Below, one piece after another: positions 31,326-34,704 of a stretch of DNA of 64,000 nucleotides (position 1 is its first letter; each line of letters starts with the position of its first letter). Under the pieces are notes generated by a model that searched no databases, was not told the DNA's origin, and was given only the letters and a program-made list of their open reading frames with translations. The position numbers and the translations under genes were made by a program. The DNA is from Chloroflexota bacterium (lineage in GTDB: Bacteria > Chloroflexota > Limnocylindria > P2-11E). The DNA is taken from contig JAJYLV010000001.1 in NCBI GenBank assembly GCA_021787445.1, forward strand, positions 6,968 to 70,967, written 5' to 3'.

Positions 31326-32756
31326 ATGACGAGCGCGACGACACCCGAGCGGATCCGCGAGACCGTGCGTCGCTACGCGCGGGAGCACGACCTCCTGCAT
31401 CCCGGCGCGATCGTCGTCGCCGTGTCCGGCGGCGCGGATTCGACGGCGCTGCTGCTCGTGCTCGCCGACCTCGCCCCGGAGCTCGGCCTCGTCCTTCATG
31501 TGGCGCACTTCGATCACCGCATCCGGCGGAGCGGCGCGGCGGACGCGCAGGCGGTCGCGGACCTCGCGGCGCGCGTCGGCGCGCCGATCCACGTCGGCCG
31601 GGCGGAGCGCGTGCCGCGCAGCGAGGACGAGGCGCGCCGGGCCCGCTATGCCTTCCTCCGGCGCGTCGCCGCGGACCGCGGAGCGGCCCAGGTCGCGACC
31701 GGGCACACGCGCGACGACCAGGCGGAGACGGTGCTCCTGCACATGGCGCGGGGGAGCGGCATCGGGGGTCTCGCGGGGATGCGTCCGTCGCGCGACGGCA
31801 TCGTGCGTCCGCTCCTGTGCATGGGCCGGGCGGAGACCGAGGCGGTATGCCGCGCCGCGAGGTCGACGCCACGCGAGGATCCGTCGAACCGGTACCTGCG
31901 CTACGCGCGCAACCGCATCCGGCGGAAGGTCCTGCCGGAGCTGCGCGCCATCAACCCGCAGGTGGCGGCGGCGCTGGCGCGTCTGGCGGACAGCGCCGCC
32001 CTCGCCGCGCACGCGGCGCGCGGCGCGGCGGAGCGCGCTCTCGTGGCGGCCCAGCGTGACGGCGCGGTCGATCTCGACGCGCTCCGCGCCGTGGACCCCG
32101 TCACCGCCGTCGACGCGCTCACGCTCGCGTGGGAGCGGGCGACGGGGAACGTCCTCGCGGCGGCGCATCGCGAGGCGCTCGCGCACGTGGCCGCGCGGCG
32201 GGACGGCAGCATGTCGCTCGACCTTCCCGGTGGCCGCATCGTCCGCGAGTACTCCTCGCTTCGGATCGAGAGGCGCGCCGCTCCCGCCTCGGAAGCGGCC
32301 GCGGGTCGCGGCCCGACGCACGATGGGCCGTCCGCGGCGCCGCCTGGTGACCTTGCTCTCTCGCTCGGCGAGCCGGTGGAGTGGAACGGTTGGCGCATCG
32401 AGCTCCTCGAGAGGCGCCCGGAGGCCGCGTGCGACGTCGCAGCGCTCATCCCCGCGGGCGACGCGGACGGACTCGTCGTGCGCGCGCGCCGCGCGGGCGA
32501 CCGGATGGCGGGGTCGCATACGAGGATCCAGGACGTGTTCACCGACGCGAAAGTCCCGGCGCGCCAAAGGTCCCTGCTGCCGCTGGTCGCGACCCGCAGC
32601 GGAGAGGTCGCTTGGATCCCGGGTATCGCGGCCGCGTGGAATGAGGTGTCAGACGGGTACGTTCTTGTGGCACACCCACCAGCGGCATGGGAGATGCCCC
32701 GCCGGGCCCCGGGATCGCGCGTAGCATCTTCGTATATGGGCACAGAGGGAGACTGA
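31326..32756 (+). CDS. tilS: tRNA(Ile)-lysidine synthetase.
   Basis: The PP-loop motif VAVSGGADSTALL is present, followed by HFDHRIR, then the TilS substrate-binding and C-terminal domains. The start is the ATG at 31326. The track ORF 31296-32756 begins inside the tRNA. Confidence 0.8.
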   Translation: MTSATTPERIRETVRRYAREHDLLHPGAIVVAVSGGADSTALLLVLADLAPELGLVLHVAHFDHRIRRSGAADAQAVADLAARVGAPIHVGRAERVPRSEDEARRARYAFLRRVAADRGAAQVATGHTRDDQAETVLLHMARGSGIGGLAGMRPSRDGIVRPLLCMGRAETEAVCRAARSTPREDPSNRYLRYARNRIRRKVLPELRAINPQVAAALARLADSAALAAHAARGAAERALVAAQRDGAVDLDALRAVDPVTAVDALTLAWERATGNVLAAAHREALAHVAARRDGSMSLDLPGGRIVREYSSLRIERRAAPASEAAAGRGPTHDGPSAAPPGDLALSLGEPVEWNGWRIELLERRPEAACDVAALIPAGDADGLVVRARRAGDRMAGSHTRIQDVFTDAKVPARQRSLLPLVATRSGEVAWIPGIAAAWNEVSDGYVLVAHPPAAWEMPRRAPGSRVASSYMGTEGD

Positions 32757-32757
32757 C

Positions 32758-34704
32758 CTGGATCTGAACAATCGCATCTTCAAGAACGGCATCCTGACGC
32801 TCCTCCTCGTCGTGATGGGCGTCGCGCTCCTCTATGCCTACCGGGCGCAGTCGCCCGCGACGAAGCAGGTCTCCCTCACCGAGGCCATCCAGAAGGTCGA
32901 CCAGGGCCAGGTCAAGGACGTCACGCTCCAGGGCAACACCAAGGCGACGCTCGAGACGACGGACGGCAACCACTACGACGTGGCCCTCACCGGGGACGAC
33001 ACCTTCTCGAAGGCGGTCCTCGACTACAACACCTCGCACCCGCAGCAGCAGGTCAACATGACGGTGCAGCAGGACAGCCCGACCCTCGGGCTCATCGGCT
33101 CGGTCCTTCTCAGCCTGCTCCCGGTGCTCCTGATCGGCGGCTTCTTCATCTACATGATGAGACAGGCGCAGGGCACGAATAACCAAGCGCTGTCCTTCGG
33201 GAAGAGCCGCGCGCGCATGTTCATCGGCAACAAGCCGACGGTGACGTTCGACGACGTCGCCGGCGTCGACGAGGCGAAGCAGGAGCTCCAGGAGGTCGTC
33301 GAGTTCCTCAAGTACCCGGAGAAGTTCTCGACGGTCGGCGCGCGGATCCCGCGCGGCGTCCTCCTCGTGGGACCGCCGGGCACCGGAAAGACCCTTCTCG
33401 CGCGCGCGGTCGCCGGCGAGGCCGGCGTCCCGTTCTTCTCGATCTCGGGCTCCGAGTTCGTCGAGATGTTCGTCGGCGTCGGCGCCTCGCGCGTGCGCGA
33501 CCTCTTCGACCAGGCGAAGCGCAACGCGCCGTGCATCGTGTTCATCGACGAGATCGACGCGGTCGGCCGCCAGCGCGGCGCCGGCCTCGGCGGGTCGCAC
33601 GACGAGCGCGAGCAGACGCTCAACCAGATCCTCGTCGAGATGGACGGCTTCGACACGGGCACGAACGTCATCGTGCTGGCGTCGACGAACCGCCCCGACG
33701 TCCTCGACCCGGCCCTCCTGCGGCCCGGCCGGTTCGACCGCCAGGTCGTCCTCGACCGTCCCGACATCCGGGGGCGCAAGGCCATCCTCGACGTGCACGT
33801 CCGCGGCAAGCCGCTCGACAAGACCGTCGAGCTGCTGAAGATCGCGAAGATCTCGCCCGGCTTCTCGGGGGCGGACCTCGCCAACGTCGTGAACGAGGCG
33901 GCGATCCTCGCGGCCCGCCGGAACAAGAAGACGATCGGTCAGTCGGAGTTCGAGGAGGCGCTCGAGAAGGTCGCCCTCGGACCGGAGCGCCGCTCGCGCG
34001 TCATCACGGAGAAGGAGAAGATGATCGTGGCCTACCACGAGTCCGGCCACGCTCTCTGCTTCAAGCTCCTGAAGCACACCAACCCCGTCCACAAGATCAC
34101 GATCGTGTCGCGCGGCATGGCCATGGGCGTCACCTGGTCGCTGCCGCAGGAAGACCGCTACTTCCGGACGAAGCGCGAGTTCGAGGACGACATCGCCGCC
34201 GCGCTCGGCGGGTGGGTGGCGGAGCAGATCCACCTCGGCGGCGACATGACGACCGGCGCGTCGAACGACATCGAGAAGGCCAGCGAGATGGCGCGGCAGA
34301 TGGTGACGAAGTACGGCATGAGCGAGAAGCTCGGCCCGCTGCAGTACGGGCGGACGGACGAGCTCATCTTCCTCGGCCGGCAGATCCAGGAGGAGCGGAA
34401 CTACTCCGAGGACGTGGCCAAGCTGATCGACAGCGAGGTCAAGGAGATCATCGACGCGGCGCGCGAGCGCGCCTACCAGGTCCTGACGCAGCACAAGGAC
34501 AGGCTCGACGCCGTCGTGCGCCGGCTCATCACCGACGAGACGATCTCGAGCGAGGAGTTCGACAAGCTCTTCGAGGACCAGAGCGCCGAGATCCCGGCGG
34601 CGGCGAGCGCGGGCCATCCGACGGAGCCGCCGACGACGGGACAGACCGGCGGAGAAGACCGCCGCACCGGAAAGGGACCCGCGACCGCCCCGAGCCCCGC
34701 GTGA
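32758..34704 (+). CDS. ftsH: ATP-dependent zinc metalloprotease FtsH.
   Basis: The Walker A motif is [18 protein letters not shown], the Walker B motif is IVFIDEIDA, the SRH is [19 protein letters not shown] and the zinc site is HESGHAL. The first TM helix ([17 protein letters not shown]) lies upstream of the first in-frame GTG at 32812, and there is no ATG, GTG or TTG between the upstream stop at 32722 and 32812. The start is therefore assigned to the CTG at 32758, 6 nt after an AGAGGGAG Shine-Dalgarno sequence. The conservative alternative is 32812-34704. Confidence 0.8.

Follow-up and report, generated by a model that had tools for sequence, protein, structure and literature searches.

In Escherichia coli, infC and pcnB begin at AUU and plasmid repA at CTG, in each case a weak start codon combined with a functional ribosome-binding site, and discrimination against such codons is attributed to initiation factor IF3. 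Near-cognate codons are rare among the annotated starts of 79 model bacterial genome and plasmid sequences. When all 64 codons were measured in E. coli, CUG and AUC gave about 0.1-3% of the AUG value, and ACG also gave a protein starting with methionine (Hecht et al., bioRxiv 10.1101/063800). In Deinococcus, peptide evidence supports starts at ATC for dnaA, CTG for rpsL and Deide_03051, and ATA for infC (Baudet et al. 2010, PMC2830850). Neighboring genes can also be coupled by termination-reinitiation where stop and start codons overlap, as in ATGA, GTGA or TGATG (Huber et al. 2019, PMC6728339). Here, we analyzed a 64,000-nucleotide stretch of a Chloroflexota bacterium of the Limnocylindria (“the window”; contig JAJYLV010000001.1 of assembly GCA_021787445.1, positions 6,968 to 70,967, forward strand). 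Four of its genes appear to lack a usable canonical start: the protease gene ftsH, the fused ECF transporter ATPase gene ecfA, a PIG-V-like glycosyltransferase gene, and a gene for a small membrane protein. Comparison with relatives makes it likely, with a probability of roughly 0.8, that all four are translated from near-cognate starts, namely CUG in ftsH, the glycosyltransferase gene and the small protein gene, and AUC in ecfA.

An earlier note on this DNA, made without database searches, had placed the conserved N-termini of the four proteins upstream of the first usable canonical start (ATG, GTG or TTG; we count CTG, ATC, ATT, ATA and ACG as near-cognate), and inspection of the window bears this out at all four sites. 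Its local details also hold. The ftsH frame has a stop at 32722, its first transmembrane (TM) helix before GTG 32812, and a Shine-Dalgarno (SD) sequence 6 nt before CTG 32758; the only upstream canonical start of ecfA lies 200 nt inside thiW, and AAGGGGA stands 5 nt before ATC 59418; the small open reading frame (ORF) has its SD 6 nt before CTG 18848. For the glycosyltransferase, the CTG at 48978 overlapping the aroA stop and the GGGAG motif are present, with a spacer of 8 nt, not the 9 nt given in the note.

The window has a GC content of 71-75% throughout. The closest relatives of its FtsH, glycosyltransferase and EcfA come from metagenome-assembled genomes (MAGs) labelled Candidatus Limnocylindria or Chloroflexota, and parts of it are matched at 99.6-99.8% identity by two MAG assemblies in NCBI that are independent of it, GCA_028872905.1 and GCA_018971975.1. 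Below, L-numbers (L001-L064) denote DNA loci of relatives and P-numbers denote database proteins. A scan of species-representative genomes yielded 18 ftsH loci with 55-93% identity in the N-terminal domain, and the relatives’ DNA at ecfA was obtained by exact-protein look-up from the six closest database entries. No orthologues of the glycosyltransferase gene, ecfA, the small ORF, thiW, aroA or rmuC were found by tblastn against the ftsH loci L001-L033. Pfam matches comprised FtsH_ext, AAA and Peptidase_M41 in ftsH, two ABC_tran domains in ecfA, ThiW, EPSP synthase in aroA, and RmuC; the glycosyltransferase matched Mannosyl_trans2 (PIG-V) at 26.5 bits, against a cut-off of 22.4. At the Rfam gathering threshold the whole window gave two tRNAs only, and no leader or riboswitch at the four sites.

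The features of ftsH are as follows.

32758..34704, plus strand: ftsH coding sequence, 648 aa, from Pfam and comparative alignment
32758..32760, plus strand: proposed ftsH start CTG, with a homologous start column in 18 relatives
32744..32751, plus strand: Shine-Dalgarno sequence AGAGGGAG of ftsH, 6 nt before CTG 32758, predicted pairing -9.0 kcal/mol
31296..32756, plus strand: tilS, upstream of ftsH, with Pfam PP-loop, TilS and TilS_C and stop TGA 32754-32756

An in-frame TAG (32722-32724) closes the ftsH frame 12 codons 5' of the CTG, and the first canonical codons are GTG 32812 and ATG 32815; a second in-frame CTG stands at 32764-32766. If GTG 32812 were the start, codons 1-18 (32758-32811) would be dropped, and Pfam FtsH_ext already matches from residue 12 on, ahead of that GTG. 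In the column homologous to 32758, the 18 relatives carry CTG (8), ACG (5), GTG (3; L006, L011, L012), ATG (1; L002) and TTG (1; L017). An in-frame stop immediately 5' of the ATG or GTG in L002, L006 and L011 pins the start to that column. Across the loci, nucleotide identity between pairs averages 0.32 over the 30 nt before this column and 0.84 over codons 2-19, and the variable columns of these codons fall 9, 1 and 14 times at codon positions 1, 2 and 3, which is coding-type variation. Conservation thus begins exactly at the start column, and the codon-position pattern argues that the stretch 5' of the canonical GTG and ATG is translated. All nine CTG loci (the window, L001, L003, L004, L005, L007, L008, L010 and L013) have an SD 6-7 nt before the CTG, and SD-like motifs occur at equal spacing in relatives whose ftsH start follows a leader. 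The independent assembly L001 agrees with the window at the start.

Database entries tell a similar story. About 20 of the 27 closest FtsH proteins begin ‘MG[VL]ALLYAYR’, at an internal ATG and hence without half of TM1, which implies that gene callers met no canonical start in those genomes either. One NCBI entry, P0001 (L008:2215), is annotated from the second ftsH CTG column, so a CTG start has already been used once in the public annotation of an ftsH orthologue. L-initial JGI FtsH entries (P0033) were considered as CTG starts of a sister clade and rejected, the codon being TTG. The ACG loci form a subclade (L009, L014, L015, L016, L018) in which the ACG stands behind a GAGAGGA or AAAGGA site. 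In L014-L016 an in-frame TGA lies nine codons upstream, and from there to the conserved FtsH N-terminus no canonical codon occurs; in L009 and L018 the in-frame stop lies further upstream. In four of the five ACG loci tilS overlaps ftsH, ending 11 nt downstream, and a related database protein, P0026, has a canonical start six codons upstream.

The glycosyltransferase gene lies on the minus strand.

47812..48978, minus strand: PIG-V-like glycosyltransferase coding sequence, 388 aa, Pfam Mannosyl_trans2
48976..48978, minus strand: proposed start CTG, overlapping the aroA stop TGA 48977-48975 (CTGA)
48987..48991, minus strand: SD-like GGGAG within the aroA 3' end, 8 nt before the CTG, predicted pairing -6.6 kcal/mol
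48975..50315, minus strand: aroA, the upstream gene, Pfam EPSP_synthase, with a C-terminus ‘...LGH*’ kept in relatives

The next canonical codon in this frame, GTG 48807, is 57 codons downstream and beyond the first TM helix, and the nearest upstream one is 483 codons away, inside aroA and in a junk frame. The NCBI call for this species (P0121, 99% identity) has 330 aa, begins ‘MPLQYK’ and is 58 residues short. Full-length relatives have 381-389 aa, with Met 10-11 residues before ‘LP.GL’; many others are called from an internal Met inside TM1, and relatives at 47% identity have a Met well upstream of TM1. Six of the eight relatives (L034, L035, L036, L038, L039 and L050) share the CTGA overlap, their aroA ending in ‘...LGH*’ with CAC TGA. 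In L037 and L045, the aroA TGA is followed after 22 nt by an ATG that aligns one codon downstream of the window’s CTG, with the adjacent ATC 48975. The SD position holds GGGAG, AAGGAG, GGGGG, GGGGA or GCGGG in the relatives. Two independent assemblies of the same species (L063 and L064) carry a CTGA junction identical to that of the window, which excludes sequencing error at this start.

The ecfA gene follows thiW.

59418..61124, plus strand: fused EcfA1-EcfA2 ATPase coding sequence, 568 aa, two ABC_tran domains
59418..59420, plus strand: proposed ecfA start ATC, kept in L055
59406..59412, plus strand: Shine-Dalgarno sequence AAGGGGA of ecfA, overlapping the thiW stop, 5 nt spacer, predicted pairing -7.3 kcal/mol
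58832..59407, plus strand: thiW, the upstream gene, Pfam ThiW, stop TAA 59405-59407

Its only canonical in-frame codons are ATG 59208 and GTG 59520. The ATG lies 200 nt inside thiW, and the next 70 codons read as Arg/Ser-rich off-frame sequence; the GTG stands nine codons before Walker A, and a protein started there would be without its first strands and without the aromatic residue in ‘TFRYPG’. EcfA homologues have their N-terminus 3-15 residues ahead of the conserved I-x-L-x-x-V-x-F-x-Y strand; all six of the closest database entries begin at or after Walker A. In L055 (79% identity) the thiW stop is followed by 10 nt and ATC, as in the window. In five further genomes (L056, L057, L058/L059, L060 and L061) thiW ends in ‘CGC TGA’ or ‘AGC TGA’, with an overlapping ecfA CTG. 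The close thiW-ecfA junction is kept in all seven relative loci (six genomes), and no relative recovered among these loci has a canonical codon in the start column. A synonymous change of CGC to CGG, a common Arg codon here, would produce a canonical GTGA; it is seen in none of the five genomes, which points to no visible pressure to replace the ecfA CTG.

ecfA belongs to a thiamine salvage operon at about 56500-61800 that comprises a thiD-like kinase gene, thiM, thiE, thiW, ecfA1A2 and ecfT. The order thiM-thiE-thiW-ecfA-ecfT is kept in relatives L055-L061, with the thiD-like kinase gene upstream in most of them. Nowhere in the window did Rfam score a thiamine pyrophosphate (TPP) riboswitch at its gathering cut-off.

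The fourth site lies behind rmuC.

18848..19204, plus strand: small membrane protein gene, 118 aa, proposed start CTG 18848-18850, from homologue alignment
18833..18841, plus strand: Shine-Dalgarno sequence GAGGGAGAG of the small ORF, within the 3' end of rmuC, 6 nt spacer, predicted pairing -9.0 kcal/mol
17187..18845, plus strand: rmuC, the upstream gene, Pfam RmuC, stop TAG 18843-18845

The ORF is a real gene for a 118-aa membrane protein. It scores 81 bits of coding signal. With E<=1e-3 as the limit, a full HMMER search recovered 25 homologues, five of which reach E<=1e-10, and the majority are 103-122 aa long. The 17 aligned homologues match end to end, and in at least eight homologues Met1 falls in the CTG column; the family comprises proteins of 110-122 aa. 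The next canonical codon, GTG 19091, is 81 codons downstream, so that a canonical start would give a product of at most 37 aa, and gene callers limited to such starts probably miss the gene.

Beyond the individual sites, we scanned the window for the onset of coding signal, using codon-usage log-odds trained on its long genes. The onset fell at 32755 for ftsH, 59406 for ecfA, 48978 for the glycosyltransferase and 18815 for the small ORF, and in the other 58 predicted genes it fell within 15 codons of a canonical start, with three exceptions. These outliers (1434, 6248 and 17685) were considered as further cases and rejected as scan noise or antisense artefact. For one of them, a signal from about 6248 in the frame of a DUF4446 gene, the Pfam domain starts right after GTG 6602, so it does not stand as a fifth candidate. 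The roughly 390 nt of plus-strand signal upstream of this gene (about 6602-7105, plus strand) is the antisense of a small minus-strand gene in the same region (6213-7105). This minus-strand gene ends at TAG 6230, codes for a TM helix at its C-terminus (...VIVAVLVLLGLSGVAVNAFVK*) and gave no hit in Pfam.

The SD sequences also stand out from the background. Across 1767 internal in-frame CTG, ATC, ATT, ATA and ACG codons, the median predicted anti-Shine-Dalgarno pairing was -3.0 kcal/mol, with 2.8% reaching -9 and 7.4% reaching -7 kcal/mol, placing the four sites in the top 3-10%. Canonical starts in the window had a median of -5.5 kcal/mol, weaker than all four sites. With the proposed starts included, start-codon usage in the window is GTG 28, ATG 27, TTG 2, CTG 3 and ATC 1.

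To gauge frequency, we conducted a census under a conservative rule, flagging a gene when its first canonical start was preceded by coding signal of at least 20 bits across a minimum of 12 codons. Of about 61 genes judged in the window, the rule flagged the four sites, plus two artefacts under the relatives’ model. Among non-target genes at 32 Limnocylindria loci it flagged 4 of about 231 judged, in a codon-usage census that is noisy in relatives, and at eight high-GC outgroup loci 0 of 70. One non-target flag was verified: the ligT orthologue at L010:9660-10355 (plus strand) starts with ATC three codons after an in-frame stop, its Pfam register equals that of the window’s GTG-started ligT (34972-35559), and its first canonical codon lies beyond the first HxTx motif. 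In the window, ligT is a LigT-like 2H phosphoesterase gene downstream of ftsH. The flag at L055:7025 was false, with a canonical start 17 codons upstream. Two others, L007:14952 (gene 13051-14946, minus strand) and L003:4428 (gene 4437-4979, plus strand), are candidates, with signal from 33-44 codons before the first canonical start and a weak SD; the product of one is a cNMP-binding/Peptidase_M50 protein, and for the other Pfam gave no match. The window is thus locally richer in near-cognate starts, at 4 of about 61 genes, a frequency that is only roughly quantified. The earlier note’s suggestion that the organism uses such starts frequently gains from their being shared across the lineage, in the ftsH column and in ligT of L010, and the same rough quantification applies to its wording ‘unusually often’.

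If this reading is right, a strong SD 5-8 nt upstream would set the near-cognate codon in the ribosomal P site, and the ordinary initiator tRNA (CAU) would pair with CUG, AUC or ACG via one mismatch. Met would thus be the first residue of each protein, and the conserved N-terminal elements would be retained. Ribosomes ending the upstream gene would probably be handed on, offsetting the weak codon and tying output to that gene. Stop/start coupling through CTGA appears to be the main route for the glycosyltransferase and ecfA, and the ftsH CUG may also act as an independent SD-led start, since relatives keep the CUG on an apparent short separate leader. A likely result would be low, tightly set expression of membrane or complex subunits; such low expression, tied to the upstream gene, would plausibly suit the products concerned, which are a membrane protease, a transporter ATPase, a glycosyltransferase and a small membrane protein.

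A conserved element upstream of ftsH bears on the question of a separate leader.

32722..32727, plus strand: TAGCAT, resembling a -10 box (TAnnnT), conserved in relatives; its TAG is the stop bounding the ftsH frame

TAGCAT is found upstream of ftsH in 19 of 19 loci (17 exact, and two variants, TAGCAG and TAACAT), at a variable distance from the ftsH start and in a variable frame relative to tilS. Only three loci, L002, L011 and L012, have it 8-9 nt ahead of the start; they lack an SD and begin with ATG, GTG and GTG, respectively. The other 16 loci have a leader of 23-44 nt, and 14 of them start with CTG or ACG (Fisher p = 0.01, not corrected for phylogeny). This pattern fits leaderless starts requiring a cognate codon and SD-led starts tolerating near-cognates; TAGCAT is a candidate -10 box, and the ftsH mRNAs of those three relatives may be leaderless. 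The window’s own ftsH does not have this arrangement, as TAGCAT lies 30 nt 5' of the CTG, with the SD between them.

Several observations weigh against near-cognate initiation at the four sites, or limit what can be read from them. All four starts are known from MAG sequences of uncultured organisms. The exact codon could also be a neighboring one: 32758 or 32764 in ftsH, CTG 48978 or ATC 48975 in the glycosyltransferase, and ATC 59418 or ACG 59412 in ecfA. Outside the four targets, the near-cognate rate in relatives is about 1%. In the CTGA junctions the CTG is also dictated by the last codon of the upstream gene and its TGA, so CTG conservation is not by itself independent proof of start function; for the glycosyltransferase that codon is the final His of aroA, and CAC encodes His in 89% of cases in this genome. 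What carries the argument for the glycosyltransferase is that its conserved N-terminus is translated and that no alternative start is available. Neither a promoter nor a terminator was found near ftsH in a sigma-70 consensus scan that covered 32500-32900, so that what speaks for a promoter role of TAGCAT is its conservation and its geometry in the relatives. Finally, the codons in question are 30-1000 times weaker than AUG in E. coli, which is hard to reconcile with an essential protease unless start fidelity in the lineage is relaxed or little protein is needed.

The alternative that survives best is pure termination-reinitiation, in which the CTG and ATC codons have no start activity of their own and all four genes depend wholly on translation of tilS, thiW, aroA and rmuC. 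All four starts are co-directional with the preceding gene and lie close to its stop (glycosyltransferase -4, ftsH +1, small ORF +2 and ecfA +10 nt), and a start within -4 to +10 nt of a co-directional stop is found at 4 of 4 sites against 25 of 57 canonical genes (p ~0.04). CTGA occurs in every CTG case of the glycosyltransferase (7/7) and of ecfA (5/5), uncoupled glycosyltransferase orthologues use ATG, and coupling at 4-nt overlaps is well documented (PMC6728339). However, L037 and L045 are near-identical, so the association of ATG with an uncoupled gene amounts to one evolutionary event, and the strong SD at all four window sites would be unneeded. tilS precedes ftsH in 18 of 18 relatives, its stop lying at -4 relative to the ftsH start in the window and L001 (a gap of 1 nt), at +1 in L007 (CTGA) and at -30 in L010. 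In five of the nine CTG loci (L003, L004, L005, L008 and L013), by contrast, the tilS stop is 118-234 nt upstream while CTG and SD are kept, a distance at which reinitiation cannot explain the CTG; coupling is therefore not required for ftsH, and the conserved -10-like motif between the two genes also speaks against reinitiation alone. We consider pure reinitiation unlikely as an account of all four genes, and possible for the glycosyltransferase, ecfA and the small ORF, not for ftsH. The reinitiation offered in the earlier note as its second explanation accordingly fits the CTGA overlaps of the glycosyltransferase and ecfA and is not the whole story for ftsH, given the five uncoupled relatives.

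It is very improbable that the true starts are the downstream GTG codons (32812, 59520, 48807 and 19091) and that the shorter proteins are real. Automated annotation did produce such proteins, namely P0121 with 330 aa, FtsH beginning at the internal ATG, and EcfA at or after Walker A. With these starts FtsH would lose half of its TM1, the ABC domain would be missing its first strands together with the aromatic residue that stacks on adenine, the glycosyltransferase would have no TM1, and the small protein would be shortened by 81 of its 118 residues; moreover, the codons upstream vary in the manner of coding sequence, conservation ends precisely where the proposed start lies, and orthologues with canonical starts begin at the proposed columns. 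Shorter orthologues were what the earlier note had named as a refutation, and the orthologues instead carry the N-terminal elements. Least credible of all is that sequencing or assembly errors or pseudogenes removed the starts, or that frameshifting or readthrough fuses each protein to its upstream neighbor: the sequences do come from MAG assemblies and each downstream frame is open upstream into the neighboring gene, but identical codons recur in independent assemblies (L001 for ftsH, L055 for ecfA, L063/L064 for the glycosyltransferase, which also answers the earlier note’s concern about sequencing error) and in many species, the coding sequences flanking each junction are conserved without disruption, slippery heptamers are absent from the junctions, relatives have separate genes with spacers of 22-234 nt, and the TAG 12 codons upstream closes the ftsH frame.

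The window has two tRNA genes with a CAT anticodon.

30507-30579, plus strand: initiator-type tRNA, CAT anticodon, C1-A72 mismatch, three G-C pairs in the anticodon stem
31248-31322, plus strand: elongator-type tRNA, CAT anticodon, directly upstream of tilS

A special initiator tRNA was considered and rejected, as the window’s initiator-type tRNA has an ordinary CAU anticodon. The elongator-type tRNA could be tRNA-Ile2, the substrate of TilS. tilS itself probably starts at ATG 31326 in preference to the listed GTG 31296, because the latter overlaps this tRNA.

Near-cognate initiation at these genes has direct consequences for annotation. Gene callers restricted to ATG, GTG and TTG truncate these proteins in public annotation, and structure, topology or family models built on truncated entries inherit the error. 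NCBI annotation is inconsistent in this respect: one ftsH orthologue is CTG-started, and the glycosyltransferase, many FtsH proteins and the six closest EcfA proteins are truncated at an internal Met or Val. On the biological side, ftsH keeps a CUG or ACG start across a class-level clade and the CTGA junction recurs in two operons, which suggests either deliberate low expression through weak starts or relaxed start fidelity. In the latter case, the clade would offer a natural setting in which to study bacterial control over start-codon choice. A wider proposal, offered tentatively and in our judgment somewhat more apt to fail than to hold, is that Limnocylindria, and perhaps other high-GC Chloroflexota, have relaxed start-codon selection, with at least 1%, and locally about 6%, of starts at CUG, AUC or ACG, including essential genes initiated de novo behind an SD (ftsH), and with CTGA serving as a regular operon junction beside ATGA and GTGA. 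If true, this would imply that start-codon proofreading has undergone lineage-specific change, whether in IF3, in the 16S P-site or in the initiator tRNA, and public databases would systematically truncate or miss proteins of an abundant soil and freshwater clade.

How, then, do these genes compare with the systems described so far? They resemble infC, pcnB and repA in having a weak start codon behind a ribosome-binding site, an arrangement that sets low or regulated expression in those genes; unlike infC, none of the four encodes a translation factor. Relative to the E. coli measurements across 64 codons, clade-wide near-cognate use for an essential protease suggests either very low demand for the protein or better tolerance of such codons. 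They share with termination-reinitiation coupling a co-directional arrangement with a 4-nt overlap or a gap of at most 10 nt, and the window holds at least 17 ordinary ATGA or GTGA junctions. They differ in that the overlapping start is CTG (CTGA), which censuses and gene callers based on canonical starts do not count, and in that ftsH is uncoupled in five relatives. Within the library searched, we found no paper linking start-codon use to Chloroflexi or Limnocylindria. As in Deinococcus, CTG and ATC start conserved housekeeping genes of a high-GC lineage and are kept among relatives, and in both cases the starts were spotted through conserved N-termini upstream of the canonical start and are mis-annotated by pipelines. 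The differences are the phylum (Chloroflexota, Limnocylindria), the genes, the presence of ACG in the start column and the recurrent CTGA junction. The Deinococcus starts are backed by peptides, and those described here are known from sequence comparison. We count four cases in about 61 genes, versus four per genome in Deinococcus deserti (PMC2830850), and both the lineage rate of about 1% and the density in the window are well above the levels in Deinococcus deserti and in the survey of 79 sequences. The mechanism is thus already known from Deinococcus, and what is new here is the lineage, the genes and the apparent frequency.

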